In this document: positions 8,578 through 64,000 of the stretch, one piece after another
Layout: each line of letters starts with the position of its first letter
Position numbering within the stretch: position 1 is the stretch's first letter
DNA from: Phycisphaerae bacterium
GTDB lineage: Bacteria > Planctomycetota > Phycisphaerae > UBA1845 > Fen-1342
Length of the DNA: 64,000 nt
NCBI GenBank assembly: GCA_963675745.2
Contig: CAXXWX010000019.1
Span: 192,001-256,000, forward strand
Reading direction: 5' to 3'
Notes under the pieces: model-generated
The model's input: only the letters and a program-made list of their open reading frames with translations
Told to the model about the DNA's origin: nothing
Databases searched by the model: none
Position numbers and translations under genes: made by a program

Positions 8578-10164
8578 ATGACTACGATCGACGTGCTTTA
8601 TGACCTTACCTGTGCGGCGAGCGATGCGGCGCGTTTTGCGCGCGACATCGCCCTCGAACAGACCGTTGAGGTTCCCGAAGCGGTTGCCACCGCCGCCGAC
8701 CTGCCGGCGGGGATCGTCGGCGAGGTGGCGGATATCCAACCGCGCGCCGGTGCCGCCGGCTGTTTTCGCGCCACGATTCGGTACGGCGCCGACCTTGCCG
8801 CGCTGCAATTGCCCCAACTGCTCAACCTGCTCTACGGGAATATCTCGATCAAGAACAACGTCCGCATCGTGGATGTTAGCCTGCCGGCGGAGTTCATCGC
8901 CAACTTCAAGGGGCCCAACTACGGCGATAGCGGCCTGCGCAGACTGCTGGGCGTGTACGATCGCCCGTTGCTGGCCACCGCCATCAAGCCGCGCGGGGCG
9001 CGACTCGACCACCTGACGTCCATCGTGCGCGACTTCGCCCTCGGCGGCGGCGACATCATCAAGGACGATCACAACCTCGTCGATCTCTCATTCGACGCGT
9101 TCGAAACGCGGGTTACCGCCTGTCAGAGGGCTGTTGAGGAAGCCAATGCCGGCACGGGGCACCATGCGCTCTATTTCCCGATGTTGATGCCGCCCGCTGA
9201 TCAGCTCGAGCGCCACATCGACTTTCTGCTGAGCCGTGGCATCCGCGGCGTGCTGGTGTGCCCGTTCATTCAGGGCGTTGACACGATTCGGCATCTGGCC
9301 GAAACGCATCGCCTGGCAATCATGGCCCACCCCGCCTTCTGCGGGACGTTCCTGCACGACGAGACGCACGGCATCGCCGCACATGTGTTGCTCGGCACGC
9401 TGCTGCGCCTGGCGGCCGCCGACGCGTCGATCTTCCCCAACCACGGTGGTCGTTTTGCCTTTACGCGCGAGCGGTGTGCGTCGATCAGCCGCGCTCTGCG
9501 CGAGCCGCTGGGGAATCTGAAGCCCGCCATGCCCGTGCCGGCCGGCGGGATGCGCTTCGAGAGCATCCCCGACATGGCCGAGCTGTATCAGGCCGATGCT
9601 ATTTTCCTCATCGGTGGGGCCCTGCTGAGCCACTCGCGCAGCCTGCGTGATAGCACGGCGGCATTCGTCGAACGCGTCGGCGAACACTTCAGCCCGCGAT
9701 ACACCCCGCCCGAGCGCGACTTGTTCCCGCTGGGCAGCGCGTGCGAACACGGTGTCAGCGAGCTGGTCGAGGGAATCAGGACGCACCTGCGATTCAACGC
9801 CGACTTCACCTGGCAGGGCCGCAGCGCCGTGGCATACAAGTCTTCTGCGGAGCTCCCGTTTCGTGACGTTGAGCGTACTGAACTGGTCGGAAAAACCGGT
9901 GAGCCGGCGGCGTTTGACCTGCGCTATTTCCAGATCGCTCCGCAAGGCTTCACCAGCCTTGAGAGGCACCGTCACATTCACGCCGTCATTTGTGCCCGCG
10001 GTCGGGGTGTGCTGCTGGTCGACGAGCGGCGCATCGAATTGCGGCCGCTGGACGTGGCGTACATTGAGCCGAACGCCGTTCACCAGCTCCGCAACGAATC
10101 CACGGAGCCGCTGGGGTTCTTCTGCATCGTCGATCGCGAGCGCGATCAGCCGCGTCGGCCATAG
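8578..10164 (+). CDS. RuBisCO-like protein (form IV RLP) fused to a C-terminal cupin domain
   Basis: IALEQTVE, LLYGNIS, FKGPNYG, AIKPRG, GGDIIKDDH, IMAHPA, PVPAGGM, LIGGALL; then cupin LRYFQIAP..SLERHRHIHAV..HQLRN. Confidence 0.9.
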   Translation: MTTIDVLYDLTCAASDAARFARDIALEQTVEVPEAVATAADLPAGIVGEVADIQPRAGAAGCFRATIRYGADLAALQLPQLLNLLYGNISIKNNVRIVDVSLPAEFIANFKGPNYGDSGLRRLLGVYDRPLLATAIKPRGARLDHLTSIVRDFALGGGDIIKDDHNLVDLSFDAFETRVTACQRAVEEANAGTGHHALYFPMLMPPADQLERHIDFLLSRGIRGVLVCPFIQGVDTIRHLAETHRLAIMAHPAFCGTFLHDETHGIAAHVLLGTLLRLAAADASIFPNHGGRFAFTRERCASISRALREPLGNLKPAMPVPAGGMRFESIPDMAELYQADAIFLIGGALLSHSRSLRDSTAAFVERVGEHFSPRYTPPERDLFPLGSACEHGVSELVEGIRTHLRFNADFTWQGRSAVAYKSSAELPFRDVERTELVGKTGEPAAFDLRYFQIAPQGFTSLERHRHIHAVICARGRGVLLVDERRIELRPLDVAYIEPNAVHQLRNESTEPLGFFCIVDRERDQPRRP

Positions 10165-48734: not shown

Positions 48735-49829
48735 TTACGTCTCATCCGTCTTCAGACGCGACAGGGCGAACGTCGCGGCGAATCCCGATGCCACCAGTAT
48801 TGCTGCGATTGAGGCGTTGGCGACGGTGTAGTCGCTCTGCTTACGCTGATTCCAGTGATCCAGAACATATTCGGCAAGCACTTCAACCTCATCGTTTCCA
48901 GCGCCGACTTGGACGCCGGAGATTCCCGGAATGCCCCGCGCCTCTGCGAAAGACCGCAGTGCCGGGGGATCCAGCCGTTCCAGAGCCTTTGCGCCCGGCT
49001 TCTGCCCGAACGGCCACAGGCCGATCACCGACCCCAGCAGGATACCCAGCAGCACGCCATGCGTGGCCCGCCGATAGTGGTGCAGCAGGTACTTGAGCAG
49101 GTTGGATAGGCCGACAATCCCGATCACCGCGCCAATGCCGACCGGCACGACAATCCACAGCGCCTCGCGCACGAGTTGCCAGTCGCGCCCGCGCAGCGCG
49201 TCCTTCAGTTCGTCCACCGTGCCCACGATGCGCTCGTACTGATCGAGGATCAGCAACATGTACGACCCGGAGATGCCGGGTAGCACCATGGTCGTTGAGC
49301 CAACCAGCCCGGACACAAAATCCATGCCGGTGTTGTGCGGCAGGCCGCCGCCCGCCATGAAACGCAGCAACACCACGCCGACCATCAGCAGCAGCCCCGC
49401 CAGCGTGGCAATTACCGCGTCAGAGCGCCAGGGCGTCAGCGAGCGCGACAAAAGCGGCGCCCCGCCGAGCGTCAGCCCGATGAACAGCGCGAACATCGCG
49501 ACCGTGAAATGCAGTAACAGATAGAGGATCACACCCGCCAGGCCGACAATCGCACCGGCCGCGCACAGCCCCACGATTCCCAGAAATACTACGCGGCGAA
49601 CCGAAAAACGCAGCGCCGAAATGTCGGCGACGCTGTCGATGAACTCGTCGTAGACCCCCATCGCCAGGATCATGGTGCCGCCTGATACGCCCGGGATCAG
49701 GTTGGCGATCCCCATCAGCACACCGGCAACCGCCGCCCGTGCCGTGCCTAGAATCCCATGCCGGCGTGGCCCTGCCGCCCGCTCGCCATCCGATGCTGCT
49801 GTCGGGGGTGTCTCTGTCTGATCGCTCAT
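48735..49829 (-). CDS. DUF368 family membrane protein (putative undecaprenyl-phosphate translocase)
   Basis: Two repeats, MGIANLIPGVSGGT and MVLPGISGSYMLL. Confidence 0.9.
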   Translation of the reverse strand: MSDQTETPPTAASDGERAAGPRRHGILGTARAAVAGVLMGIANLIPGVSGGTMILAMGVYDEFIDSVADISALRFSVRRVVFLGIVGLCAAGAIVGLAGVILYLLLHFTVAMFALFIGLTLGGAPLLSRSLTPWRSDAVIATLAGLLLMVGVVLLRFMAGGGLPHNTGMDFVSGLVGSTTMVLPGISGSYMLLILDQYERIVGTVDELKDALRGRDWQLVREALWIVVPVGIGAVIGIVGLSNLLKYLLHHYRRATHGVLLGILLGSVIGLWPFGQKPGAKALERLDPPALRSFAEARGIPGISGVQVGAGNDEVEVLAEYVLDHWNQRKQSDYTVANASIAAILVASGFAATFALSRLKTDET

Positions 49830-49941
49830 GGCGGCAGACTCTAAGCAAACCGCGCCGTGGTGTCTATGTCGCCGCCGACCCGGTATACTGCCGCCAGTCA
49901 CATCGCACGTTCGTCACAGGTACTGTTGCGGGAGCGAATCG

Positions 49942-50487
49942 TTGTCCGCACCACCACCGACCGATCCAACCTGGCCTCAGTTTGCGCGTTCGGTCATCTC
50001 GAATGCCGTGCGCGAAACCGCCGCGCCGCGCATCCCGCCGCCCGCGGATGCTGGCCGTGCGCACAGCGGCGCGTTTGTCACCCTGCGCAAAGCTGAGCGG
50101 CTGCGCGGGTGCATGGGCACGCTTGACCCGTCAATGACCCTGGTTGAAGCGGTGCGCCACGCCGCGGTCAACGCCGCCCTGCACGATCCGCGCTTCCCTC
50201 CACTGCGGCCCGAGGAGCTTCATGACGTCACTGTCGAAGTGTCCGTCCTCTCCGAGCCGCACGCCATGCAATCACTTGATGATCTTGTGCTGGGTCGTCA
50301 CGGGATCATTGTCGAGGCTGGGCACCGGCGCGGCCTGTTTCTTCCACAGGTTGCCACCGACCACAACCTCGACAAGATCGCGTTTCTGAGCCGATGTTGT
50401 TCCGAGAAGGCCGGACTGGCCGCTGATGCCTGGCGTCAGCCCGATACCTCCGTCCAGATCTTCGAAGCCGAGAAGTTCAGCGAGTGA
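49942..50487 (+). CDS. amrA: AMMECR1-domain protein (AmmeMemoRadiSam protein A)
   Basis: GAFVTL..LRGCMG, DPRFPPL..EL, VEVSVLS, GLFLPQVA, KAGL; TTG start after GGAG. Confidence 0.88.
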   Translation: MSAPPPTDPTWPQFARSVISNAVRETAAPRIPPPADAGRAHSGAFVTLRKAERLRGCMGTLDPSMTLVEAVRHAAVNAALHDPRFPPLRPEELHDVTVEVSVLSEPHAMQSLDDLVLGRHGIIVEAGHRRGLFLPQVATDHNLDKIAFLSRCCSEKAGLAADAWRQPDTSVQIFEAEKFSE

Positions 50488-50504
50488 CTGTGTTCGGCGG
50501 CGCT

Positions 50505-50720
50505 TCACTCGGCCGGAGTGCTACGCTGGCCGGCGTCCTCGTGTGCGATCCCCAGAATCAGCGCCACACCCACGCCCAACACCGCCACCACCGTCTCTTC
50601 AGACAGAATCCAGCCGGCTTGCGCCGCGTACGCCACCAGAACCGTTGCCAGTGCTACCTGCACTTTCCGGCTGACGAGCGGCCATAGCCAGCGCCGCCAT
50701 GTCCCTTCGTTATTGCTCAT
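50505..50720 (-). CDS. Small 2-TM holin-like membrane protein
   Basis: 71 aa; LVSRKVQVALA motif, two hydrophobic helices, GIAHEDAG; last gene of the phage-head operon. Confidence 0.6.
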   Translation of the reverse strand: MSNNEGTWRRWLWPLVSRKVQVALATVLVAYAAQAGWILSEETVVAVLGVGVALILGIAHEDAGQRSTPAE

Positions 50721-50724
50721 GCCG

Positions 50725-51312
50725 TCATTCCTCACCGTCACTGTTTGCGTCGGAAGTCGCGTTGTCAGCCGAGGCGCCCACCTGCTCTCCCAGCGCGGTC
50801 GCCCAGCCATCCTTGATCCGCTCAAAACGTCGATCGAGCGATTTGATGATTAGATCCACCGGCGATTGGTCGGCGTACAATTTCGCATCCACTCCCGCCA
50901 GGCGCAGCGCCTTGGCACGCTCAAACTGCAACGCCCAGAATTCCAACAAGTCACGTTCGTTCCACGCCTCGTTCAGTGCCTCTCGTTGGGCGGCGTTCAG
51001 CGTCGCATCATCCTGCTCGAGGCGGTGCAACAGATCGCGGTGCAACATGATCCGCAACCCCTCGTGCTGACGCTGGAAGACGAACTGCTGTACCTCGTCG
51101 GCGCGCTGCTGGGCGTTGAGCGCCAGACGCAGCGACGGTGCCGTGCAACCTCCCACCAGCAGCACCATAAGAACCAGCACCAGCGCTCGGCGGCAGAACC
51201 GGTGCAACGTGACGCCGTGACTCTCTTGTGCATTCACTGCCAGATCCTCACAAACCCGCGCGGCTGCGCGCCGCGGTCCCCGTTCACGATTCTCGCTTCG
51301 CGCGATGACCAT
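50725..51312 (-). CDS. Putative helical lipoprotein
   Basis: Lipobox VLLVGGC followed by coiled/helical sequence; GGAGG RBS. Confidence 0.6.
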   Translation of the reverse strand: MVIARSENRERGPRRAAARVCEDLAVNAQESHGVTLHRFCRRALVLVLMVLLVGGCTAPSLRLALNAQQRADEVQQFVFQRQHEGLRIMLHRDLLHRLEQDDATLNAAQREALNEAWNERDLLEFWALQFERAKALRLAGVDAKLYADQSPVDLIIKSLDRRFERIKDGWATALGEQVGASADNATSDANSDGEE

Positions 51313-51316
51313 GCCC

Positions 51317-51616
51317 TCAACCTCCCAGTTCGCCGAGCAACCGCACGGCACACACAAAACCGTCCGTCCATTTCTCAGCACTGATCGCCTCGGCGAGCTG
51401 CTGAACGGTGTCGCGCAGGGCGCTGTCGGACAGCCAGCCACCCGCCGGCGCTTCGCGCGAGAGCGTGGCGTCGTTGTAGTCGCGCGCCGCTGGTGTCTGT
51501 GTCTGCTGTACGTGCTGGGCTTCGATAAGCAGTGCGTCGATCACCTGCCGCGCCGCGCGGACAAAGGTGCGCGCCGTGTTCTGATCCAACTGTTCCGCGA
51601 ATGTCACGAGGTCCAT
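51317..51616 (-). CDS. Hypothetical protein (99 aa)
   Basis: GGAGG RBS, compact operon spacing. Confidence 0.65.
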   Translation of the reverse strand: MDLVTFAEQLDQNTARTFVRAARQVIDALLIEAQHVQQTQTPAARDYNDATLSREAPAGGWLSDSALRDTVQQLAEAISAEKWTDGFVCAVRLLGELGG

Positions 51617-51679
51617 CGTATGCCTCCGTTGTACAAGGCCGCGCTACCCGCGGCCGGGGTCCGATGTGCCGGCCGATTG

Positions 51680-51967
51680 CTACGCCTGGTCCAGCACCTC
51701 GAGTTGGTGCGAAAGACGGGCAAACCACTCGGCCTCTGTTTCCCGCTGCGAACGCAGTTCCTCACGCAGCGCGGTCAGCGCCGCCGTGTTTGTTCCGATC
51801 ACGTCAAGCAGGCGGTCATTAATGTCGATGAGCTGGGCTGCATGCGATTGCGACGCCTCGACGGCACGCGATGTTCGTACGCGCTCCTGACGCTCATACC
51901 ACCACATCACGAATAGCAGCCCCGCGATCCCCAGCGATGGAATCTGCTCCACGACCGCGTCGAGCAT
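51680..51967 (-). CDS. Single-TM + coiled-coil protein, BhlA/UviB holin-like
   Basis: SLGIAGLLFVMWWYERQER...NTAALTALREEL; TGATG overlap with the upstream gene. Confidence 0.6.
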   Translation of the reverse strand: MLDAVVEQIPSLGIAGLLFVMWWYERQERVRTSRAVEASQSHAAQLIDINDRLLDVIGTNTAALTALREELRSQRETEAEWFARLSHQLEVLDQA

Positions 51968-52293
51968 CACGGCACCAACTCGTACCACACGGTCAACTGG
52001 AAGTCCTTGTCGAGTCCGTCCATGCTGTTCGTGAACACCAGCGCTTCGCCGATTTTGGTTGTCACCCCATACTCGCGCCCGAAGAACAGGTCATGCGGGG
52101 CATAGCTGTCGATTCGCAGCCAGCCAAGAATGGTCGTCGGCGTCTCCTCCCCCAGACGCGACTTCAATGTCAGCCTGCCGGTGTCCGTGCCGCTGTACAG
52201 CACGCGCGTGATCAGCACGCGCTTGCCGGCAACAGCCGCCACAAGTTCGGCGTTAATCTGAGACCCCGAGTGTTGCGCCGTGGCAATCGCCAT
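51967..52293 (-). CDS. Hypothetical beta-rich virion-type protein (108 aa)
   Basis: AGGAG RBS, MAIATAQHSG start; follows the gp36-like adaptor. Confidence 0.65.
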   Translation of the reverse strand: MAIATAQHSGSQINAELVAAVAGKRVLITRVLYSGTDTGRLTLKSRLGEETPTTILGWLRIDSYAPHDLFFGREYGVTTKIGEALVFTNSMDGLDKDFQLTVWYELVP

Positions 52294-52348
52294 CTTCTGT
52301 ATCTCCTGTGTCTCAACAATGGTCGCGCAGGTACGCCGGATGCCGCGC

Positions 52349-52801
52349 TCAAAGTCCGTCGAGTTCGTCTCCGGTGAACTTGCGCGCACTCCCCGAATAC
52401 CGCGGCGAATCGTCCACCGCCGTCGGGCCGGCAATCGGGCGCGCCGCCGGTAGGTTGATCGCGCCGCGCGCCACTCCCTTGAACCACTCAGTGGTGGCCA
52501 GGTACACATCACGGACGCGACCCGGAATGTCACCCACGAACGGCGAGCTCTTCCACGCACCGTACTCAGCAAAATCCAACACTCGCGCCTGTAAGGTCGC
52601 TTCAAGGTCCGCGTTGGCGCTGATGTTGATCGGTGTCGCGTAACGCACTGACAAATAGCTGTCGGCTTCCGACTGGGCTTCGTCAATGATCTGTTGCGCG
52701 ACGCTCGCTGATGCCGTCTTGCCATCAACCCTGTCTGTGAGCCGCGCGTAGAGCAAACTGCCCAGCCGGGCAGTGAGATCCGCGGTCGTGATGTATGCCA
52801 C
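52349..52801 (-). CDS. Mu gp36-like (DUF1320) head-tail adaptor protein
   Basis: AYITTADL..RL...LTD; I.EA.SEADSYL..RYATP; Y..A..W...VARG.I.L; RKFTGDEL pattern; GAGGAG RBS. Confidence 0.85.
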   Translation of the reverse strand: MAYITTADLTARLGSLLYARLTDRVDGKTASASVAQQIIDEAQSEADSYLSVRYATPINISANADLEATLQARVLDFAEYGAWKSSPFVGDIPGRVRDVYLATTEWFKGVARGAINLPAARPIAGPTAVDDSPRYSGSARKFTGDELDGL

Positions 52802-52888
52802 TGTCGCTCTCCTCGGCGGCGCGCCCGGGGTCACGTGGACCCCGGTGCGACACCGCTGTGGGAAAAGGCTCCCCCGCTCGCGTTTCTG

Positions 52889-53818
52889 TTATGTCAGCGT
52901 CACCAGGCAGGCGTTTTGCCAGAAGCCATACCCCGCCTCGTGAATCGCCTTCACGCCGTACTGGTGCTGGTTCTCATTGATCTCGAGCTCACTGCCCTCG
53001 GCCAGGGCCTGCACCTGGACGGGAAGCTCTTCCTGGAATATGAACGGGCGCGTCTCGCCATCACCACGAAAGATGGCGAACTTGGTCGTCCAGCTCAGTC
53101 GCGGATTGGCGACCCACTCGACACGAAACGGCTCCGGCCCGGCCAGTGGATTAACCGTGCCATCACCGGGCTTGCCGGTCAGGGCGGCCAACGTCGCCGG
53201 CAGGAAGGGCATCGGTACCATCACCATGAAATCACGCGACGACTCGTTCAGCGGCTCACCCGCGTCATCCTTGAGCCCCATCAGTTGCGTGATGCCGTGG
53301 ACGATCCCCTCGTACATCTCGATTTCGGTTGGCGCGGTTGGTGTCGCGACGTCATGCGTGATGCTGTTGCTCTGCGCGCCCGAATCACCCTCATTGTGGT
53401 CCGTGGCAAAAAAATTGCTGCCGTCGTACGCCGCTGAGCTCTCGCCGGCTTGCAGCAGCGTCGTCAACAGCTTGTTGGGATGGGTGGCCACGCGCCGCGC
53501 CATCTCGTTGACGCGCACCATGATCTGCCCGGTCTTGTCACGCCGCTGTTCATCGGCATCGACACGTATCGTCGACTCCCACACCTTGTTGACGATCGTC
53601 ACGCCCTGCGCGCTCAGCGGCTTGACGCGGCGACCACCAACCCACTCGCGCACCTGGGGGACCATCCCCAGCCAGCGATACGTCTCACTTTCCTGCGCGC
53701 TGGAGAAATGCAGCGCCAGTTTGGTCCACCACGCGGCTTGCGCGTACTCCTCGAGTCGGCGGTAAAACCGCCCGATGATCGCGCGCGACGTTAATCCTGT
53801 CTCAGTCACAACTGCCAT
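52889..53818 (-). CDS. Mu-like prophage major head subunit (gpT family, HK97 fold)
   Basis: ETYRWLGMVPQVREWVG.R, IVNKVWESTI.V, HPNKL..LL..G, YDGSNFFATDH, GYGFWQ. Confidence 0.92.
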   Translation of the reverse strand: MAVVTETGLTSRAIIGRFYRRLEEYAQAAWWTKLALHFSSAQESETYRWLGMVPQVREWVGGRRVKPLSAQGVTIVNKVWESTIRVDADEQRRDKTGQIMVRVNEMARRVATHPNKLLTTLLQAGESSAAYDGSNFFATDHNEGDSGAQSNSITHDVATPTAPTEIEMYEGIVHGITQLMGLKDDAGEPLNESSRDFMVMVPMPFLPATLAALTGKPGDGTVNPLAGPEPFRVEWVANPRLSWTTKFAIFRGDGETRPFIFQEELPVQVQALAEGSELEINENQHQYGVKAIHEAGYGFWQNACLVTLT

Positions 53819-53872
53819 GTTCTTGTCTCCCAATCGGTCTCTGCTTGTCTCTTTTGATTCGTCAGCCAGGTC

Positions 53873-54017
53873 GTTCAGTCAGTTCTCAGTGTTCAGTTGT
53901 CAGTTTCAGCAGCGACAACACCCGCCGAGATCAGCGAACCTGTAACGCGAATCAGCGCCACGGCCGCAGCATCTGTGTTCGCTGTTTCTGTTCCTGAAGA
54001 CTGAACACTGAAAACTC
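53873..54017. repeat. Heptamer-based imperfect inverted repeat between the cement and major capsid genes
   Basis: cagttctcagtgttcagttgtcag (about 53880-53903) vs ctgaagactgaacactgaaaactc (about 53994-54017); same unit family as 23885-23920. Confidence 0.75.
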
Positions 54018-54022
54018 CTCCG

Positions 54023-54433
54023 TTACTGCCATGGCTGACAGCGCACGCGCGCGAGGTTGGTTCCTTCGAGCCCGATCAGCACACCGATCGCGCTGTTCCC
54101 GCTCGACGTAAGCGTCAACGTGCCGTCGTCGCTGGCGTACACAACGCTGCCCACGTCGCTCTGCGTAACCCCGCTCAGCGTGTGGACAATGTCCACGACC
54201 TGGTGCAGGCGCGCCGCAATACCGCCGGCCGCGTGTCCCGCAATCGTGTTGTCCGCCTGACGGTAGGCCACGCCCACGAACGTGTCTGCGGCGACAAGCG
54301 GTCGCGCGTATCCCGTGCTGGCGTTCAATCCGACCAAGGCCCCCTTGAAGATCACAACGTCATCATCGACCGGCACGTCGATCAGTTCCTGTGTGGCAAA
54401 AAACTCCACTTCGCGATCCGCAGTCAACGCCAT
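54023..54433 (-). CDS. Capsid cement/decoration protein (DUF2190/RecA-like-fold phage family)
   Basis: MALTADR..., PV....IFKGALV, FVGVA, VTQSDVGSVVYASDDGTLT, AIG; strong RBS GAAGGAGA; lies between protease and capsid genes. Confidence 0.82.
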   Translation of the reverse strand: MALTADREVEFFATQELIDVPVDDDVVIFKGALVGLNASTGYARPLVAADTFVGVAYRQADNTIAGHAAGGIAARLHQVVDIVHTLSGVTQSDVGSVVYASDDGTLTLTSSGNSAIGVLIGLEGTNLARVRCQPWQ

Positions 54434-54480
54434 TGGTGATATCTCCTTCATGTTGGGTGACAGCTTCCGCCGCCAAATGA

Positions 54481-55665
54481 TCAAATGCTCGTGGACACCG
54501 AGCCACGCCGTACGCGGCCCGCAAGCACCGCGCGCTCATACGCCGTCAGATCCTCAACTTCGATCCCCGCGCGCCGAAAGGCATCGGCGTTGCGCGCGTA
54601 GGTCAGCTCGACATCCGATCGTGCCAGCACGTCGCCGCGCGCATCGAGTTCCACGACGCGCCCCGGCGGCAGCAAGACAGGCGCGCGCGCCAACCGGGCC
54701 GCCGTCGCTTGCGGATCGCGCAGGTAGTCCTCGCGCCAATCCATGCTGTTGGCGTCGAGGATCTTCCCCACGCGCATGCCACGCTCGACAAACGTGTCGG
54801 CCTCTTGTCCAGCGAGTTGCCGCCGCAGCCGCGCCACTTCTTCCTGTGCAGCATCCAATTCGCGTTCGGCCAGCAGCGCCGCTTCGAGCGTGATCTGGTC
54901 TTCGGAGTCGCCGTTGATAGCTGCGGGCTGAACGCCGCGTGAGGCGGCGAGCGGCGTAACATCGTGCATCGCAGGGTCATTGGTAAGTGCCACCGGCCCC
55001 AACGCCGCCACATCACCATGATCCTCGTCGGCCCAGTAGATCACGGGCGAGAAGTAGCGGTACTCCCCGGCCGCCAGCAGTGTCTTGGCTCGATCCGTCC
55101 ACGTGACGTCCACGGCCCACAGACCGTCATCGCGCACCTCGAGCCTGCCGATCCAACCCGCCGCCGGTCGCAAACCGTCCGCGCGTGTGTTGAGATGCTC
55201 AAAGCTCTGGTGCTCATAGTCGATCGCCAGCTTGCGCCCCAGGCCGTCGAACCACCGCTTGGCCGAGTCCGCGTGCCGGCGCGTGAATTCAAAGCTGCCG
55301 CCCGACACCGGGTGTTCAACCTCTATCGCCCCAAACGGAATGAGCAGCCATTCACTCACCGGCTCGGCTCGGCGTGTCGCCAGGACACTGTACGTGTTGG
55401 CATCGCAGTCAACGCACATGTCGGCGGCTTGCACGAGTTCATGGGCACGCAGGCGGTCAAGCGCATCGGTCATGATCTCGCTGACACGCCCGAAATCAGC
55501 CTCAACCCCGCTGCTTAGCAGCGCCAACGCCTCTCTGAGCCCATCACCGATGATCGGCGGTGGTGGGAATGCTGCCCGCGGAGGCTCGCAGGTGTTTCTG
55601 GTTGTATCTGTGCGTTCCAAGCTGATCACCTCGCTTTCTGCGTTTCGTTGTCCATCCCGCCGCAC
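54481..55665 (-). CDS. Mu-like prophage I protein (head maturation protease/scaffold)
   Basis: LAIDYEHQS, PAAGWI, GLWAVDVTWT.RA..L..GEYRYFSPV, VALTNDPAM; C-terminal coiled scaffold. Start uncertain. Confidence 0.9.
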   Translation of the reverse strand: MRRDGQRNAESEVISLERTDTTRNTCEPPRAAFPPPPIIGDGLREALALLSSGVEADFGRVSEIMTDALDRLRAHELVQAADMCVDCDANTYSVLATRRAEPVSEWLLIPFGAIEVEHPVSGGSFEFTRRHADSAKRWFDGLGRKLAIDYEHQSFEHLNTRADGLRPAAGWIGRLEVRDDGLWAVDVTWTDRAKTLLAAGEYRYFSPVIYWADEDHGDVAALGPVALTNDPAMHDVTPLAASRGVQPAAINGDSEDQITLEAALLAERELDAAQEEVARLRRQLAGQEADTFVERGMRVGKILDANSMDWREDYLRDPQATAARLARAPVLLPPGRVVELDARGDVLARSDVELTYARNADAFRRAGIEVEDLTAYERAVLAGRVRRGSVSTSI

Positions 55666-55675
55666 GACGCGCGGC

Positions 55676-56164
55676 TCAACTCGCCTTGACCCGGCGCCGC
55701 TTACTCTCGGCGGGCGCTTGAACCATGAGCTCGACGTTCCCCTTGCTGCTGCACCGACCGGTCGAACGAAACCCCAGCGCCTCGTAAAAGCGGCGCGGAT
55801 TGCCCGAGCTCATGTCGAGCTTGCAGCGCACCTCGGTCGATCCTGTCTGACGAATCAGCGCACGCCCCACTCCCAGCCCCCGATACGCCGGATGCACCAG
55901 CACGTTGATCAGCCGCTTGCCGGCGGTCTGTATCGCGATGCCGACCAAAATCGCGTCGACTTCCGCAATGAAAACGCGGTGGTGCTTGCCGGACAGGATG
56001 TCCGCGAGTTGGCCGCGCCGCATGAAGTAGTCCTTGCGCAAAACCGTGTCGAAGAAGAACAGCAACGGCTCGACGTCCGTCGGCCCCACCCGCCGCACAC
56101 TGAGGTTCGCCACACGCCTTGGTTCCGCCGTGGCGCTATCGTTTTTCCGCGTGCGTTTGTTCAC
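55676..56164 (-). CDS. GNAT family N-acetyltransferase
   Basis: Motif A VHPAYRGLGVGRAL and RRFYEALGF; GTG start overlaps the portal stop (GTGA). Confidence 0.85.
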   Translation of the reverse strand: MNKRTRKNDSATAEPRRVANLSVRRVGPTDVEPLLFFFDTVLRKDYFMRRGQLADILSGKHHRVFIAEVDAILVGIAIQTAGKRLINVLVHPAYRGLGVGRALIRQTGSTEVRCKLDMSSGNPRRFYEALGFRSTGRCSSKGNVELMVQAPAESKRRRVKAS

Positions 56165-57480
56165 GATTGGCCCTCCCGCGAGACGGTGGTTTCGCCACTC
56201 TGAGCCTGCGGGATGCCCAACGCCTGGTGCAACCATGGCAGCGGTATGGACAGTCCCAGGTCGTTGACCGCAACGGCCAACGTCTCGGCCAGGACTTTCG
56301 TATCCACCGATTGCACCAACGACCGCCGAAAGTGCGGCACGGGAACATCATCGCCAAAGCGCGCCTGCACGATCGGCTTGAGCACATCGCGGCGCAGCGT
56401 GTCTGCCTCGTCGTTTATGTCGTCGACAAGCAGGTCTTCGCGGACGCGGTCGTGGACCTCCGCCGCCGCACGCGAGCCCGTGTTTCCCATGTCGGTCGTC
56501 AGGTGTTGCCCCAGCCAGAGAATGGTTATCTCGGTATTGCAGTAGTCCTGGAGTGGCAGGTAAGGCTTGTCACCGCCCTTGGATTCGAGAAAGTCCATCT
56601 CGACGTTCTTGCTGAACGCCGCCACCGCGTCGGTGCCCAAACGCGTGAGCATCTTCAGCAGCTCACTCTTGTCGGGCTCCGGCGTGCCGGGTTCATAACG
56701 CGCGACCCGCACGGGCATGCCGGCGATCTGCGAGTAGATAAGCCAATCTTTGAAGCTCAGGTTCTGGGCCACATAGAGCAGCACGGAGGCACGCAGCAAC
56801 CCATCCTCAAAGTGTCGTCCCGGACGCGGGCGCGGCTTGTGAACGATCCATTTGGTCGGGTGTTCGTCGAGCGCAATCCCGAATGAGGCGCTGTCCGCCG
56901 TGCGCACGCACAGCCGCCACGGCTGCTGCGGGTCGGCGACCAGGCGCGAGTACGGCACGGGCACAACATCCACCAGCCGACCACGCTCCCACACCAGTTC
57001 GGCAACGGATATGCCATAGCCGATTGCGTTGGCCAGGTGGTCGAGCGCTTCACGGAATCGGTCAAGCCCCGCAAGCGTTGCTCGGCAATGTTCAACCGCG
57101 GCAGCCGCATCCCCCGCGATACTCCGGTGATCGGCGCTCTTGCAGTCTGGCGGCGACTGCAACTGCCCGGGTGAGAGCTCCCACTCCAGTCCGGTCAGCG
57201 CCAGGCGGCGCGTCGCCTCGACGGCGGCCAGCCGCGGCCATTTTTGCAGCATCTCGGAGAACAGTTCGAATTGCAGTTGCGGCGCGCCGGAGTCGGCGCT
57301 TTGCAGGAAGCTCAGCAGGCGGGCGGGCGTGATGCCCACGCTGGGGTACATGCGCAAGCTGTCCTCGCGCCAGGGCCGGATCACACGGCCATCGCACGCC
57401 GGCGCGGTTTTCTCTCCCGGCAGCAGCGATCCCAGGGTCTTTAGCAGGCTGAGGGCATGACGGCGGGTCTTCTTGAGCAC
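56161..57480 (-). CDS. Mu gp29-like (DUF935) portal protein
   Basis: GITPARL, LFSEM, RRLAL, AIGYGISVAELVW, GLLR, W..Y....GMPVRVARY, LGQHLTT, GSRAAAEVH..VR.D; AAGGAGG RBS + GTG. Confidence 0.92.
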   Translation of the reverse strand: MLKKTRRHALSLLKTLGSLLPGEKTAPACDGRVIRPWREDSLRMYPSVGITPARLLSFLQSADSGAPQLQFELFSEMLQKWPRLAAVEATRRLALTGLEWELSPGQLQSPPDCKSADHRSIAGDAAAAVEHCRATLAGLDRFREALDHLANAIGYGISVAELVWERGRLVDVVPVPYSRLVADPQQPWRLCVRTADSASFGIALDEHPTKWIVHKPRPRPGRHFEDGLLRASVLLYVAQNLSFKDWLIYSQIAGMPVRVARYEPGTPEPDKSELLKMLTRLGTDAVAAFSKNVEMDFLESKGGDKPYLPLQDYCNTEITILWLGQHLTTDMGNTGSRAAAEVHDRVREDLLVDDINDEADTLRRDVLKPIVQARFGDDVPVPHFRRSLVQSVDTKVLAETLAVAVNDLGLSIPLPWLHQALGIPQAQSGETTVSREGQS

Positions 57481-57534
57481 GGCGGCAGCCTCCTTCACGC
57501 GGGGGGGCTGACCGCGCCCACGCCGCATGCATCA

Positions 57535-57561
57535 AGAATAGCACAGAAGTCTAGCTATTCT
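57535..57561. promoter_or_regulatory. Inverted repeat AGAATAGC-N11-GCTATTCT, candidate operator upstream of the head operon
   Basis: Perfect 8-bp dyad in an AT-richer patch about 55 nt upstream of the portal start. Confidence 0.45.
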
Positions 57562-57704
57562 AGGACTAGCCGTCGGCCTGGCGCCGTCTGCGCCGCATTG
57601 CGCTGTTCTGGTGGACTATCCCCCTGCCAAGTCACCGGCCCCAACGAGTGGAAATTGTCCCCCGCACCTCGCGCCCGGGGCCGCACGCTCCTCTCGGGCG
57701 CGGA

Positions 57705-58148
57705 TTACTCGGGCACGCCGTCGGCGGTGCGTTGTCGCGCCGCCCCTACGCGCGTGCTGCCGCACTCCGGGCACTTCACGGTCTCACTCGTGTCCGCCGG
57801 CACAAACCGCTCGTTACACGCGCGGCATTCCCATACCGGATAGCAATCACGCGACCCCGTGTCAGGGCACACCGCCGGATAAACCCGTTGGGCATCCATG
57901 GGCAGCTCGAATTCGGCGCCGGTCGACAGGCTGCGCACTATCACGACAGCCGGAGTCGCCTTGCCCCCTGGTTGAGCGCTTAGCATGACGTAGACCACGC
58001 CGGCGGTCAGGAGCAACGCAAGCCCGATCGTCGCCATCAGCCAATGATGGCGACGCAGGCGCCGGGCAAATGCGCCGACAGAGACATCGCCGTCGCCGTC
58101 AATCGCCGAGTGGAGCGTTCTTAGTGATTGTGATCCATCACGACGCAT
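57705..58148 (-). CDS. Membrane-anchored protein with Cys-rich (Zn-ribbon-like) C-terminus
   Basis: One TM helix; CPDTG..C, ECRAC, CPECGS. Confidence 0.65.
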   Translation of the reverse strand: MRRDGSQSLRTLHSAIDGDGDVSVGAFARRLRRHHWLMATIGLALLLTAGVVYVMLSAQPGGKATPAVVIVRSLSTGAEFELPMDAQRVYPAVCPDTGSRDCYPVWECRACNERFVPADTSETVKCPECGSTRVGAARQRTADGVPE

Positions 58149-58271
58149 GCTCGATCCTCGTCCGCCATCTAATATGGTACCGGCGCGAATTGGGCAAGGC
58201 GTCAAACCTCACTCCTCAAATGCCGCCGCCTCCCTCGCTCTCCATCTCCGGCCTGCTACACTACCACTACC

Positions 58272-58751
58272 ATGAGCTTCCGCACCGGCATCGGCTACGA
58301 TCTCCACCGCACCACCGAACAGCGCCCGCTCGTGCTCGGCGGCGTGACGATTGACGCCCCGTTCGGCCTCGCCGGCCATAGCGATGCTGATGTCGTGCTG
58401 CATGCGCTATGCGACGCACTGCTGGGGGCCGCGGGCCTCGGCGACATCGGCGAGCTCTTCCCGGATACCGATCCCACTTACGAGAATGCGGACAGTTGTG
58501 TGTTCGTCCACGAAGTCCTGCGACGCGTCCGCGCCGCCGGCTTCGAACCGGTCAACGTCGACATCATCATCCACGCCCAAAAGCCCAAGCTCGGCGAACA
58601 CAAGTCGACCATCCGGGCGTCACTCGCCAAGCTGTGCAGCCTGCCCTCCGAAGCCGTCGGCGTGAAGGCCACCACCAACGAGGGCCTCGACGCCATCGGT
58701 CGCGGCGAGGCACTCGCCTGCTGGGCAACCGTGTTGCTGGCATCCCGCTGA
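58272..58751 (+). CDS. ispF: 2-C-methyl-D-erythritol 2,4-cyclodiphosphate synthase
   Basis: RTGIGYDLH, GHSDADV.LHA.CDALLGA.GLGDIG.FPD, VKATTNEGL..IGRGE. Confidence 0.97.
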   Translation: MSFRTGIGYDLHRTTEQRPLVLGGVTIDAPFGLAGHSDADVVLHALCDALLGAAGLGDIGELFPDTDPTYENADSCVFVHEVLRRVRAAGFEPVNVDIIIHAQKPKLGEHKSTIRASLAKLCSLPSEAVGVKATTNEGLDAIGRGEALACWATVLLASR

Positions 58752-61916: not shown

Positions 61917-62690
61917 ATGGAGCGAGGCAGTCGGAAGCGGGAAGCGATAACGGCGGTCTGGGATACTTACACACGCACTCGCTCTGATGAGGCCCGCAAC
62001 AAGCTCGTCGAGCACTACATGCCGATCGTCACTAAGCTGGCGGAAATCATGTCACGCCGACTTTGGCCCCGGGTATCAGCCGATGAGCTGGCCAGCGCCG
62101 GCTTCGACGGGCTGATAGCGGCTGTCGCGGCGTTCGATCGAGATCGGGGGGTCAAGTTCGAGACTTATTGCCGACAGCGCATTGTCGGTGCCATCCGCGA
62201 CTGGCAGCGTGAAATCGACCCGCTGGGACGCTCCGGGCGGAGCTTCGAGCGGACACTGCTGGCAACGGAAAGCCGCTTTCAGGCCGAACAGGGGCGTTTG
62301 CCGACCGTGTCCGAGCTTGCCGGCGCCATGGACATGCCTCTGGGCAAGTTCACCAAGATGAAACGAACCGTACTTGCATCGCACTGCGTGCCGTTGGAGA
62401 CGACGATGGACCGCCGCGAAGAGCACAGGGTGGGGTCATTAGTGCCGGCCGACCCTCGACCGGGACCTGCCCAACACACTGAGCGCGAGTTGATTCGGGA
62501 GCATCTGACCAGGGGGCTGAAAGAACAGGATCGGCTAGTCATCGTCTTGTATTACTACGAGCGCCTGACCATGGCGGAGATCGGCGCGGTGCTCGGCGTG
62601 AGCGAGTCGCGCGTCTGTCAACGTCACGCGGAGATCATCGAACAGTTGCGGGCGCGCTTCGGCAAGCAACCCTGCGACCTGGTGGCCTGA
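61917..62690 (+). CDS. RNA polymerase sigma factor, FliA/WhiG family
   Basis: RNKLVEHY, FDRDRGVKFETYC..RI.GAI.D..R..D, LYYYERLTMAEIG.VLGVSESRVCQ.H. Confidence 0.93.
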   Translation: MERGSRKREAITAVWDTYTRTRSDEARNKLVEHYMPIVTKLAEIMSRRLWPRVSADELASAGFDGLIAAVAAFDRDRGVKFETYCRQRIVGAIRDWQREIDPLGRSGRSFERTLLATESRFQAEQGRLPTVSELAGAMDMPLGKFTKMKRTVLASHCVPLETTMDRREEHRVGSLVPADPRPGPAQHTERELIREHLTRGLKEQDRLVIVLYYYERLTMAEIGAVLGVSESRVCQRHAEIIEQLRARFGKQPCDLVA

Positions 62691-62840: not shown

Positions 62841-63842
62841 TTAGTATTGAACGAGTTCGGCGCCGTCGATGACTCGGTCCCAGTCAAAGGCCGGGCCGGG
62901 ATCCACCTTGCCGCGCGTGATGTGCCAGTGACCCAAAAGCCCACTATACGCGGCCATCTCATCATCGCTCAGTACCGTCGTGCGCAGATTCCCATCCGCA
63001 TCACGCGGATAGTCCATCTCGATTCTGGGCAACACCGCGCACAGCGTGGCGGTCAGCTTGACGAGTGAATCGTACTGCGCGTCCGTCAGGTCGTATTGGC
63101 TCAGCTCACGTCCGTTGATCGTGCCCTGGACGATGTCGTTGCGGGCTGGGTACGCGACAAAACCGGGAGTGCGCACCCCGGGATCACCAATCCAAGCAGG
63201 ATAATTGACGTATGCGCGTCCTTCGTCGTCACGGGCATACCACTCATCCAGCGTCTTGGTGTCGCCATACGCCCCGATATTCGCGATCTCGACCCCGATA
63301 CTGCGATCGTTGGCACTGCCGGCGTGCCACGCGCGCTCCTTGAGATCGAGGGTTTGATAGATCGTGCCGTCCACGTCGAGCATGAAATGGACGCTCAGGC
63401 CGCGCATGTCCTGCAATACGCGAAAGCACCGCCGCGACGAGCCGCAGGCATCGTAGTGGATCACAAACAGGTCGACCCATTCCTGCAATCGCTCCAGGCT
63501 CCAGCCCGATTCCCGCACCTCCGCCAGCACCTCATCGGGCAAATGTCGCCGATACGTGCTGTAGCGAATTGGCTGCTTGCTGACCGGCTTGGTTGGGCTC
63601 TGCTGATCGCTGAAACGGCACTCGGCCCGGTAGGCGTCATAGCCTCCGGGGTCCATCCACAGCACGACAGGTGCCCCGGTGTGAAAAAGCTGCCCGCAGA
63701 CCACTATTTCATCGCCGAGACGCGTCACGGGGGCGCCTGGGTGGCCGTAGGGCCCCGGGGCAACGCAACCCGCGGTTGCGAGAAACAGAGCCAGCGCGCC
63801 AACTAATTGCCAGATCAACGCTCGATTGCCAGTCGTTTTCAT
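62841..63842 (-). CDS. N-acetylmuramoyl-L-alanine amidase (Amidase_2), lipoprotein
   Basis: Lipobox ATAGC; VIHYD, LSVHF, AWHAG..NDRSIGVEI, GHWH...KVDPG. Confidence 0.9.
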   Translation of the reverse strand: MKTTGNRALIWQLVGALALFLATAGCVAPGPYGHPGAPVTRLGDEIVVCGQLFHTGAPVVLWMDPGGYDAYRAECRFSDQQSPTKPVSKQPIRYSTYRRHLPDEVLAEVRESGWSLERLQEWVDLFVIHYDACGSSRRCFRVLQDMRGLSVHFMLDVDGTIYQTLDLKERAWHAGSANDRSIGVEIANIGAYGDTKTLDEWYARDDEGRAYVNYPAWIGDPGVRTPGFVAYPARNDIVQGTINGRELSQYDLTDAQYDSLVKLTATLCAVLPRIEMDYPRDADGNLRTTVLSDDEMAAYSGLLGHWHITRGKVDPGPAFDWDRVIDGAELVQY

Positions 63843-63885
63843 GGATTCTCCTGCTTGCGGAACACAACTACACCCCGCGCGGCTG

Positions 63886-64000
63886 TCAGGGTGATGGTTC
63901 GGATGGGGCCGTGGTCGGGTGTTGCGCGGCATCGCGGAGGGCGGCCCGCAGATTCTCGTGTTTCGGCAGATCCTCGAAGTCGAACAGCTTCATTTCTTCG
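63886..64000 (-). CDS. 3' end of an unidentified CDS entering from beyond the window
   Basis: Open frame EEMKLFDFEDLPKHENLRAALRDAAQHPTTAPSEPSP* with GC3-rich codons, ending just upstream of the amidase. Confidence 0.5.
   Translation of the reverse strand, partial: EEMKLFDFEDLPKHENLRAALRDAAQHPTTAPSEPSP

Follow-up and report, generated by a model that had tools for sequence, protein, structure and literature searches.

An apparently tail-less capsid gene system of Mu type in an uncultured family of Phycisphaerae, a candidate DNA packager akin to gene transfer agents

A Mu-type head block between host genes

The stretch of DNA analysed here (the window, 64,000 nucleotides, from a genome that we denote G000) carries a Mu-type head gene block, which Pfam and PHROG profile searches place at positions 50505-57528 on the minus strand, between host genes. 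Its eleven genes all have uninterrupted open reading frames and follow the order portal, GNAT, gpI protease/scaffold, decoration protein, gpT capsid protein and gp36 adaptor, and then five small genes (s7-s11). A first-pass annotation had listed these head genes and the five small genes, and the profile searches found all of them on the minus strand; its block limits of 50505..57480 enclose the right genes, except that the portal ORF runs 48 nt past 57480, to 57528.

The portal gene (56161-57528, minus strand) is a 455-aa ORF of the Mu type (DUF935/Portal_Mu; PF06074 E=5e-73, phrog_113 E=2e-73) whose conserved part begins near residue 17. It is the single portal in the whole G000 genome, and a portal at 55-70% identity is present in all 41 named loci that extend far enough upstream. 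The GNAT acetyltransferase gene (55676-56164, minus strand; PF13508 E=8e-12) sits where Mu has gpF/gpG, a position at which phage D3112 carries F and G. The gene begins with a GTG codon that shares bases with the stop codon of the portal (GTGA, a junction read directly); the second overlap that had been claimed, TGATG, agrees with the ORF coordinates at the s7/s8 junction. GNAT occurs in 41 of 41 loci with room for the gene, in one of 41 as an in-frame fusion with the portal, and its acetyl-CoA-loop residues H91, P92, R95 and G100 vary little or not at all among 40 sequences.

The remaining head genes, all on the minus strand, are also recognizable by profile. The gpI-type head maturation protease, with a C-terminal scaffold-like part (54481-55665; PF10123 E=7e-37, phrog_328 E=3e-34), is found in 43 of 49 named loci, all misses being at contig ends. 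It is followed by a decoration/cement-like protein (54023-54484; phrog_1731 E=8e-21; phrog_122, head decoration, E=5e-4), whose relatives align from residue 18 (about 54433) and match PF09956 Phage_cement_2, by the gpT-type major capsid protein (52889-53833; PF10124 E=4e-43, phrog_371 E=3e-52), and by the gp36-type head-tail adaptor (52349-52834; PF07030 E=1e-15, phrog_195 E=5e-18), present in 49/49 named loci. The region between the decoration and capsid genes holds a long imperfect hairpin (53881..54016, minus strand, inverted repeat I3; RNA fold -72.5 kcal/mol, z=-2.9). Few of 46 other loci have a comparable hairpin, and the length of this spacer ranges from 7 to 399 nt; the hairpin is lineage-specific and stands outside the conserved system.

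The small genes also lie on the minus strand. The first, s7 (51967-52305), encodes a 112-aa beta-rich protein of unassigned family, with no Pfam or PHROG match and no likeness of its profile to Mu gp37-like proteins. It is the variable member of the block: no more than 17 of 49 named loci gave a match (27-34% identity), 7 of these matches contain stops, and the gene is absent from one locus of the same genus (L033). The s8 protein (51680-51967; 35/49 named loci) has, as read from its sequence, an N-terminal transmembrane helix and a coiled coil, an architecture suggestive of an i-spanin-like role. The s9 gene (51317-51616) encodes a 99-aa soluble helical protein, present in 44 of 49 named loci without internal stops and aligned at a mean column identity of 63%. 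The s10 product (50725-51201) is a lipoprotein whose lipobox cysteine, C19, is invariant in the alignment; its mature domain is all helices in the predicted model (pLDDT 84), for which no PDB fold match was found, and among the 120 matches listed for its family (n=338) the source-named members are all Phycisphaerae/Planctomycetota hypothetical proteins. Finally s11 (50505-50735; about 70 aa, two transmembrane helices) is the best-conserved small gene; 41 of 49 loci have it, at 57-88% identity. Among Atlas clusters the closest to s11 are small viral proteins (0.91), and the closest that bear a name are phage holin families (0.82-0.84); these are leads only, by which s11 may be holin-like.

As the first-pass annotation had proposed, the flanks are of host type, namely AMMECR1 (49828-50487, plus strand), a Zn-ribbon protein (57705-58205, minus strand) and IspF (58272-58751, plus strand), and on both sides the block is joined to contiguous host DNA within a 511-kb contig. 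It had also reported no obvious composition shift and no att repeats, and our measurements agree: GC is 0.60-0.66 within and beyond the block alike, GC3 is 0.71-0.81 for the module genes versus 0.76 +/- 0.05 for 42 other window ORFs, and the repeat search returned only short imperfect, chance-like matches at the flanks. The window contains no tRNA, none of the 49 other window ORFs scanned has a phage or mobility Pfam domain, and scanning of the window and flanks showed no integrase, transposase, small terminase or primase/replication gene.

Family-wide conservation and an orphan large terminase

The clean retention of the block had been taken as a sign of selection on a domesticated capsid system, and its distribution in the family strongly supports this. 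The order from portal through GNAT, protease, decoration and capsid to gp36 is kept in all 15 family loci retrieved and in every named locus with sufficient DNA, and dozens of genera carry the block intact. Of 36 family genomes, close relatives included, 33 have one copy of the capsid gene, at 66-80% identity to that of G000 where full-length; NusA is similarly conserved in the same genomes (62-78%). A portal was found in two of the three family genomes that lack a single-copy capsid match. The crude dN/dS of the module is 0.21-0.39, like the 0.29 of its host neighbour AMMECR1, and does not indicate relaxed selection; these values are rough, since synonymous sites are saturated (pS about 0.55), with the ORFs still open.

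That the locus holds only one phage module could also mean a decaying prophage remnant or an assembly break. This we consider highly improbable given eleven open frames, a block intact in dozens of genera across which synonymous change is saturated, and contiguous, compositionally even host DNA on both sides; no full-length prophage was found at the same site, and gene order in 15/15 loci together with NusA-like capsid conservation rejects decay.

A search of relatives for the same order at the amrA/ispF locus had been suggested; the order was found, and the position is kept only in part. Downstream of the block, 10 of 49 named loci have AMMECR1, and no locus has ispF upstream. Among genomes with G handles, AMMECR1 flanks the block on several branches of the NusA tree, and NusA lies within 4 kb of the terminase described below in 3 of 24 genomes, observations that fit inheritance in place. 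The suggested comparison of capsid and host trees gave modest agreement (Mantel test, capsid vs NusA r=0.36, p=0.017; terminase vs NusA r=0.25, p=0.08; 23 taxa, star-like trees), and exchange within the family may occur. Elsewhere in the phylum, beyond the order, just 10 of 400 genomes have a capsid homologue; two of these were inspected, and both cases are ordinary siphophage prophages that carry a small terminase, a tape measure and a tail terminator.

The absence of a terminase, noted in the first pass, is true of the window and not of the genome. By tblastn we found an intact orphan large terminase gene on an unlinked contig, with host genes on both sides (G000:C16:109972-111765; phrog_38 E=7e-92), 60% identical to the terminase that lies directly before the portal in genome G017. 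The terminase is present in 35 of 36 family genomes, G024 being the one without a match, and is usually on a separate contig from the head genes; in G004 both share one contig, 236 kb apart. At least 32 of the 36 family genomes have both head genes and terminase, counting the 33 that have a capsid match and leaving out G024. Among 24 terminase sequences the residues K45/S46/T47, D179/D180/E182, D325, E384 and D457/D458/D461 are invariant, and these form the ATPase (Walker A, Walker B) and nuclease motifs. No small terminase was found for the system, and no motif common to the two promoter regions. Two genomes (G034 and G018) keep head genes and terminase and have s10 and s11 nowhere in the genome, implying that these envelope genes are dispensable for the head.

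A DNA-free shell, either a portal-bearing nanocompartment or an anti-phage decoy directed against Mu-like phage assembly, would require the terminase to serve another purpose. One genome, G026 (99% complete, 7 contigs), lends itself to such an explanation: its portal and capsid genes are absent, and an intact terminase and s9-s11 are kept, so that these genes may have uses without a head, or the loss may be recent. The GNAT of the operon, with its single portal fusion, could likewise mark an enclosed enzyme, and no tail was found. However, the terminase accompanies the head genes throughout most of the family, adjoins the portal in G017 and keeps its ATPase and nuclease residues invariant, and portal and gp36 belong to a channel for DNA, a feature that encapsulins do not have. 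The conserved catalytic terminase makes the DNA-free option less likely, and we give it little credence.

A probable DNA-packaging capsid apparently without a tail

Our best reading is that the head block belongs to an old capsid system, under selection and apparently tail-less, that packages DNA and is comparable to a gene transfer agent. The block would be what a Mu-like phage, domesticated long ago, contributed for head morphogenesis, and a family of uncultured Phycisphaerae would maintain it as ordinary genes of its chromosome. We put the probability that this is a domesticated capsid system under selection, spread over several loci and capable of packaging DNA, at roughly 0.7. Because the head genes are intact, a terminase is encoded at another chromosomal site and searches gave no tail genes, cells of the family probably make DNA-filled capsids for their own use.

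The first-pass annotation had raised a gene transfer agent with terminase and tail genes elsewhere, and had proposed a genome-wide search for both; the search recovered the terminase alone. Sheath, tape measure, baseplate J and MuF were not found in five family genomes (G000, 91% complete with 6% contamination, and four at 96-99%). No neck/hub homologue or gp37-type closure protein was found in G000, where profiles of the sister-family proteins gp37, hub, p164 and p153 gave 0 matches among 48,550 six-frame ORFs, even at E<=10. Just one hub-like gene turned up, a VgrG within a PAAR/effector island of the kind that typifies type VI secretion, and that VgrG is also present in the headless G026. 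These results, with neck, hub and tip protein profiles all silent in G000, make a complete gene transfer agent unlikely. In its favour, the terminase is an example of a component encoded well away from the head genes, and gp36, by its normal role the tail-receiving adaptor, is kept in every named locus. Tail proteins can moreover be too divergent for sequence searches, as with the sister-family hub, which has no Pfam or PHROG match and was recognised only by predicted fold, and tail genes could lie in unassembled DNA, given the incompleteness of the G000 assembly.

The gene content, head and packaging functions with no tail and a retained adaptor, would also suit tail-less DNA-filled heads that rely on tails from infecting or resident phages, fixed in the chromosome unlike capsid-forming phage-inducible islands (cf-PICIs). 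There is a precedent (10.1101/2025.02.11.637232) in which capsids are released without tails and bind those of phages afterwards. Yet the window and its scanned flanks show no integrase, replication gene or small terminase, the system occurs throughout the family as a single syntenic copy and not in patches, and no helper phage is known, the closest phage portals being at most 34.5% identical; we find borrowed tails quite unlikely.

If the system is a DNA-packaging capsid, its intact conserved genes suggest that portal, gpI protease/scaffold and gpT capsid protein would build a prohead, which gpI would mature and the decoration protein stabilise. GNAT, translationally coupled to the portal, is probably a head-associated enzyme. 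The invariant residues of the orphan terminase suggest that it would dock on the portal, drive DNA in and cut it with its own nuclease. Cargo, release and delivery we infer as follows. Since no small terminase was found, host DNA taken in with no preference for sequence would be the most likely cargo. The gp36 adaptor would close the portal, and is also the normal binding surface for a tail. The holin-like, spanin-like and lipoprotein genes among s8-s11 might work at the cell envelope, conceivably in release. Sequence and profile searches give no sign of an encoded tail, so the particle would exit the cell tail-less and delivery, if any, would need a factor in trans. Actual gene transfer between cells by this system is a tentative proposal, which we hold to be possible but doubtful.

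Comparison with known systems

We found nothing comparable in the published literature. Gene transfer agents (viriforms), in particular the RcGTA type with its multi-locus genome (PMC5026251, PMC9662315), likewise consist of phage-derived structural genes in the host chromosome that are conserved in a lineage like host genes. They also resemble the present system in lacking replication, integration and lysogeny modules and in having essential parts at separate loci. The head here is Mu-like (DUF935 portal, gpI, gpT, gp36) and not of the RcGTA type, GNAT stands in place of gpF/gpG, and the host phylum is Planctomycetota. The RcGTA head is HK97-like. To our knowledge all described gene transfer agents are tailed, whereas neither tail genes nor a small terminase were found here.

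Mu-like transposable phages (Mu, Pseudomonas phage D3112 and Faecalibacterium phage Mushu) have four Pfam families in common with the window block and the same order of portal, protease/scaffold, small protein, capsid and gp36. The block differs in having no adjacent terminase, no gpF or gpG and no transposase or tail genes, in a portal with at most 34.5% identity to any phage in the collection, and in being fixed and single-copy in a bacterial family. With cf-PICIs the system shares its own capsid and packaging genes and the want of a tail. Those are mobile, helper-dependent satellites that package their own DNA and are seen to release tail-less DNA-filled capsids, whereas the present system shows no integrase or replication genes and has a vertical, family-wide distribution.

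Sister families within the order carry a Mu-like cluster, denoted type B, with the same five core families in the same order, likewise single-copy and flanked by host genes. Its terminase, unlike that of the window type, is adjacent and belongs to another PHROG (phrog_5909/phrog_2). Type B further encodes a Mu gp37 homologue, a protein of 720 aa with a predicted tail-hub fold and two more conserved proteins, and it lacks both GNAT and s8-s11. The capsids of the two types are 34-42% identical, against 58-68% for NusA. Since the sister families hold this different and more complete Mu-like module, that of the window family is not a simple order-wide ortholog. Encapsulins, finally, are also host-encoded capsid-like shells of phage ancestry, which presumably share the HK97 fold with the window capsid. 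We know of none with a portal, protease, adaptor or terminase; in contrast, the present system has all four.

The head-gene block and its genomic setting

ORF calling places 11 co-directional ORFs on the minus strand of the window, between positions 50505 and 57528. Pfam and PHROG scans identified six of them: a Mu-type portal (PF06074, E=5e-73), a GNAT acetyltransferase (PF13508, E=8e-12), a gpI protease/scaffold (PF10123, E=7e-37), a decoration or cement-like protein (phrog_1731, E=8e-21), the gpT major capsid protein (PF10124, E=4e-43) and a gp36 head-tail adaptor (PF07030, E=1e-15). PF06074, PF10123, PF10124 and PF07030, the head-gene families of Mu-like prophages, all exceed their cut-offs. 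The remaining ORFs are small and were denoted s7 (112 aa, beta-rich), s8 (one transmembrane helix and a coiled coil), s9 (soluble, helical), s10 (a lipoprotein) and s11 (two transmembrane helices). The portal stop codon overlaps the GTG start of the GNAT gene in the junction sequence GTGA, and the ORF coordinates of s7 and s8 give a stop-ATG overlap of TGATG. The first-pass annotation had described such a set of head and small genes, with overlapping junctions, host-type flanks and neither a composition shift nor att repeats, and we confirm this description; it had ended the block at 57480, 48 nt short of the end of the portal ORF.

The block is flanked by genes for AMMECR1, a Zn-ribbon protein and IspF (Pfam), and the 32 further window ORFs scanned beyond these are ordinary host genes. 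Indeed, when 49 other window ORFs and the 20-kb loci of seven relatives were scanned with Pfam and PHROG, only host genes appeared around the block. GC content does not shift between the block and its surroundings, nor does GC3 (0.71-0.81 in the module, 0.76 +/- 0.05 elsewhere in the window). We found no att-like repeats around the block and no tRNA in the window, and the Pfam and PHROG scans revealed no integrase, regulator or replication genes in the window or in the scanned flanks. The block, which holds the sole portal of the genome, is thus without any sign of recent arrival. Taking the map of phage D3112 as the reference order, the window lacks the adjacent terminase, F and G (gpF/gpG), and the tail genes that follow gp36/gp37; the transposase genes A and B are absent as well.

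Several other elements of the window were recorded. A long imperfect hairpin (53881-54016, z=-2.9) lies inside the 189-nt spacer between the decoration and capsid genes; this spacer ranges from 7 to 399 nt among relatives, only a few of which carry similar structures, and the hairpin could have arisen as a small insertion of palindromic DNA or could be an RNA element specific to the lineage. Rfam matched nothing in 49500-58500 at E<=0.1. For 52349-57528 no RNA dataset was listed, the three entries being DNA contigs of a single study. On the portal's strand, 5.3 kb upstream of it, a gene (62841-63932, minus strand) encodes an Amidase_2 protein (N-acetylmuramoyl-L-alanine amidase) and adjoins a sigma-70 family gene (61917-62690, plus strand); neither is syntenic with the module in relatives, and a part as its missing endolysin or regulator would be speculative. 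A 528-aa ORF at 8578-10164 (plus strand) has a catalytic domain like that of the RuBisCO large chain (E=2e-21) and, at its C-terminus, a cupin domain.

Distribution and selection within the family

Records with close relatives were all metagenome-assembled Phycisphaerae or Planctomycetota. In our sample of the source genome's family (36 genomes spanning 34 genera), 33 genomes contain a single capsid match, with 66-80% identity where the gene is complete. Two of the other three (G012 and G016) keep the portal, leaving G026 as the only family genome without both genes; head genes are hence present in 35 of 36. The order portal-GNAT-protease-decoration-capsid-gp36 is intact in all 15 family loci retrieved as 20-kb fetches, 13 of which also carry s9-s11. 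Capsid and gp36 were present in each of 49 named loci, which were drawn from the same species-representative collection and so overlap with the genomes just described, and every missing head gene was explained by a contig end. The setting between amrA and ispF noted in the first-pass annotation recurs on one side only: AMMECR1 lies downstream of s11 in 10 of the 49 named loci (among the compared genomes, in separate branches of the NusA tree), and ispF lies upstream of the module in none of them.

The essential host protein NusA is 62-78% identical between the family genomes and the source genome, so that the capsid, at 66-80%, is at least as conserved. Synonymous sites are saturated (median pS about 0.55); the ORFs nevertheless remain open. 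Nei-Gojobori dN/dS medians were 0.21-0.39 for ten module genes versus 0.29 for the adjacent host gene AMMECR1, ratios that are rough because dS is saturated and GC3 biased. When only pairs with pS<0.45 were used the ratios rose to 0.32-0.69; the set contains no close pairs, and this rise is probably a selection artefact. A prophage remnant or an assembly break was considered and rejected, since the ORFs have stayed open despite saturated synonymous change and gene order is kept across the family.

Single-gene trees of 23 genomes were star-like. Pairwise distances were compared by Mantel tests. Capsid and NusA distances were correlated (r=0.36, p=0.017), as were those of the capsid and the terminase described below (r=0.42, p=0.007); terminase and NusA gave r=0.25 (p=0.08). 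These values are compatible with vertical descent and too weak to argue against exchange within the family. Tree agreement with NusA is modest, and the crude dN/dS values resemble that of AMMECR1.

Outside the order that contains this family and its sister families, any capsid homologue was found in only 10 of 400 sampled genomes of the phylum. Two of these genomes, G302 and G202, were annotated and hold ordinary siphophage-type prophages with small and large terminase subunits, a portal of another kind, a protease of the ClpP type and, for the tail, a terminator and a tape measure; our tools therefore detect tail genes where they are present. The G302 prophage (locus L165, from another family of the phylum, GC 41%) supplies the nearest outside relatives of the window's pair of capsid and decoration proteins. 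Its capsid is 51% identical to that of the window, although portal, protease and terminase come from different families, a sign of module mosaicism. The closest phage portals (Mushu, D3112) are at most 34.5% identical to the window portal.

Terminase, tail and accessory genes

One family genome, G017, carries a large terminase directly upstream of the portal. At this locus (L023:5201-7477) portal and GNAT form one 758-aa ORF, fused in frame; it is the only one of 41 family loci with either feature. The ortholog of this terminase in the window's genome (60% identity) lies on a separate contig, at G000:C16:109972-111765 (L042:9673-11469), among host genes for NusA, an ABC-F ATPase, a STAS protein and a glycosyltransferase. 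It matches the terminase large subunit family phrog_38 over nearly its whole length (E=7e-92); the ORF has 598 aa, and the conserved protein begins about 100 codons in. Orthologs occur in 35 of 36 family genomes at 55-77% identity, and almost all of them lie on a contig other than that of the head genes; in G004 the two share a contig at a distance of 236 kb. Terminase neighbours are not conserved, with NusA less than 4 kb away in 3 of 24 loci. The absence of a terminase noted from the window is therefore not a trait of the genome, and the option that the enzyme is encoded elsewhere has been demonstrated. As the terminase and head loci are unlinked, one headful cannot hold both.

An alignment of 24 terminase sequences shows an invariant Walker A (PRGHAKST), Walker B with the catalytic glutamate (LIICDDIE) and nuclease acidic residues (VDPA, IETxxYQ, HDDAPD), these names being our reading of the alignment rather than assignments from a solved structure. 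A variable insert, often K/R-rich, separates the two halves of the ATPase domain. The terminase profile matched no solved structure at E<=0.01, and its identity rests on phrog_38 and Pfam Terminase_6C; no second Terminase_6C was found in the window's genome and four other family genomes. Gene transfer agents package host DNA more or less at random, in amounts too small to carry their own genes; here the intact enzyme and its conserved catalytic residues would confer the capacity for this, and the main reason to suppose DNA-filled heads is that this translocase/nuclease is co-conserved with the portal, capsid and adaptor. We could not identify a shared promoter motif above noise upstream of the portal (40 regions) and the terminase (23 regions) by a crude search that used exact k-mers as well as 14-mers allowing at most 3 mismatches; what it returned was either GC-rich noise no stronger than in shuffled controls or the conservation of coding sequence.

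In ten other families of the order, 18 of 24 genomes matched the capsid query at only 35-40% identity, versus 58-68% for NusA. These matches belong to a different Mu-like cluster, denoted type B, with the order terminase (phrog_5909/phrog_2), portal, protease, decoration, capsid, gp36, gp37 (PF08873, E=8e-5), a protein of about 720 aa, p164 and p153, and without the GNAT gene or s8-s11. Type B capsids of different families share 62-82% identity; with the window's type they share only 34-42%. The capsid tree places the window's family beside prophage capsids, that of G302 among them, and apart from the sister families. The 720-aa protein, directly after gp37 (L160:8390-10537 and relatives), has 109 relatives, and those with a named source are nearly all hypothetical proteins of Phycisphaerae or Planctomycetota. 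Its model (pLDDT 80.6) resembles tail hub or central-spike proteins, with 43 PDB matches at E<=0.001; contractile injection system hubs and central spikes rank at the top, Mu gp44, MuSo2 and VgrG are among the matches, and the gene transfer agent RcGTA matches more weakly. No tube, sheath or tape-measure gene lies between gp37 and this hub, which implies a stub tail. The order thus holds two distinct fixed Mu-like modules, of which only type B has a stub tail and a linked terminase. We also note a His-rich repeat in p164 (GHLxDGH...HLD), a highly conserved N-terminus in p153, and a divergently transcribed TPR protein of 766-789 aa adjoining the terminase end of type B in three loci of two families (L037, L039, L041), which may be a conserved neighbour or a regulator.

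Nor were tail genes recognised from sequence when the search was widened from the window to whole genomes: no phage sheath, baseplate J or tape measure above cut-off was found in the window's genome and four other family genomes, and MuF was absent from all five. Profiles of gp37, the hub, p164 and p153 found nothing among the 48,550 six-frame ORFs of the window's genome even at E<=10, and in profile comparisons of s7-s11 with these four proteins all probabilities were below 1%. In the window's genome Phage_GPD has a single match, a VgrG with a PAAR protein after it, about 86 kb away from the module. This island (L171:3489-10465 on G000:C19) encodes VgrG (Phage_GPD and gp5 C-terminal domain), a PG-binding protein, two unknown genes and PAAR. 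VgrG occurs in one to four copies in each of five family genomes searched, and G026, which has no head genes, has such genes too. The layout of the island is typical of type VI secretion, and we judge it unrelated to the module.

The GNAT gene occupies the F/G position of Mu-like phages and its acetyl-CoA-loop residues are kept in 40 sequences, and we infer that it is a head-associated enzyme. The best-conserved small gene is s11 (57-88% identity), whose nearest Atlas clusters are small viral proteins and nearest named relatives holin families, both as leads only. The architecture of s8 is that of an i-spanin; the confident, all-helical model of s10 has no PDB match at E<=0.001. Together s8, s10 and s11 resemble a residual phage lysis cassette that lacks an endolysin. 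The link between accessory genes and head is loose: G034 and G018 have head genes and terminase with s10 and s11 nowhere in the genome, and G026 has kept s9-s11 and the terminase with the head genes gone. In this near-complete genome the s9-s10-s11 trio (L170:9172-10215) sits between host genes (APH-type kinase, Hsp70, HEPN).

Interpretation and relation to known systems

The proposal that the block is a domesticated capsid system is supported by its family-wide distribution, synteny, NusA-like conservation and open ORFs, and a host-kept, multi-locus, apparently tail-less DNA-packaging capsid is the best-supported mechanism. From observed gene identity, integrity, synteny, distribution, conservation and catalytic motifs we infer that particles would assemble, fill with DNA, choose cargo, be released and perhaps transfer it. 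A more specific and tentative proposal, which we hold at odds of roughly three in ten, is a particle that is all capsid, the mirror image of a tailocin, in which a chromosomally fixed Mu-type head, tail-less and filled with DNA, would reach other cells by a route requiring no tail of its own. Such a head would be loaded by the terminase encoded elsewhere, carry the portal-coupled GNAT along as a packaged enzyme and be released through the linked holin- and spanin-like genes; it could reach recipients with tails captured from phages, as cf-PICI (capsid-forming phage-inducible island) capsids do, or by direct uptake. The second, different module of the sister families, with its stub tail, suggests repeated selection for such particles; under the same proposal, their taming would have happened more than once within the order.

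Across dozens of Phycisphaerae genera, a Mu-derived system with its genes at separate loci, apparently no tail and conservation on a par with a housekeeping gene would give domesticated virus particles both a further origin and a further body plan. For Planctomycetota, a phylum with unusual cell biology that is common, as isolate names also indicate, in wastewater and anammox reactors, it would indicate either DNA exchange by an unrecognised route or some other use of capsids. Eleven genes and one terminase would make it a directly testable case.

The first-pass annotation knew of no such system in Planctomycetota, and our literature search found no description of one either. As far as their accessible text goes, a cf-PICI preprint (10.1101/2025.02.11.637232) offers the nearest precedent for functional tail-less capsids, a Namib salt-pan preprint deals with alphaproteobacterial gene transfer agents only, a Thaumarchaeota paper provides a general parallel only, and the gene transfer agents in the literature surveyed come from few lineages.

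A nanocompartment, also suggested initially, is less favoured: encapsulins are shells without portal or packaging machinery, whereas this system has a conserved portal, adaptor and terminase. With cf-PICIs it shares its own capsid and packaging genes without tail genes; however, those are mobile islands with integrase, regulators, replication genes and a patchy distribution, and the window's module is family-wide, single-copy and syntenic. All described gene transfer agents are, to our knowledge, tailed, and the window's system appears to differ from them in this respect, no tail gene being found by Pfam families or sister-family profiles. Gene transfer agents and viriforms are still its nearest functional relatives: the phage-derived particle genes are resident in the chromosome of the host and are accompanied by no module for replication, integration or lysogeny, and they are inherited with the host lineage, with only modest tree agreement, under purifying selection.
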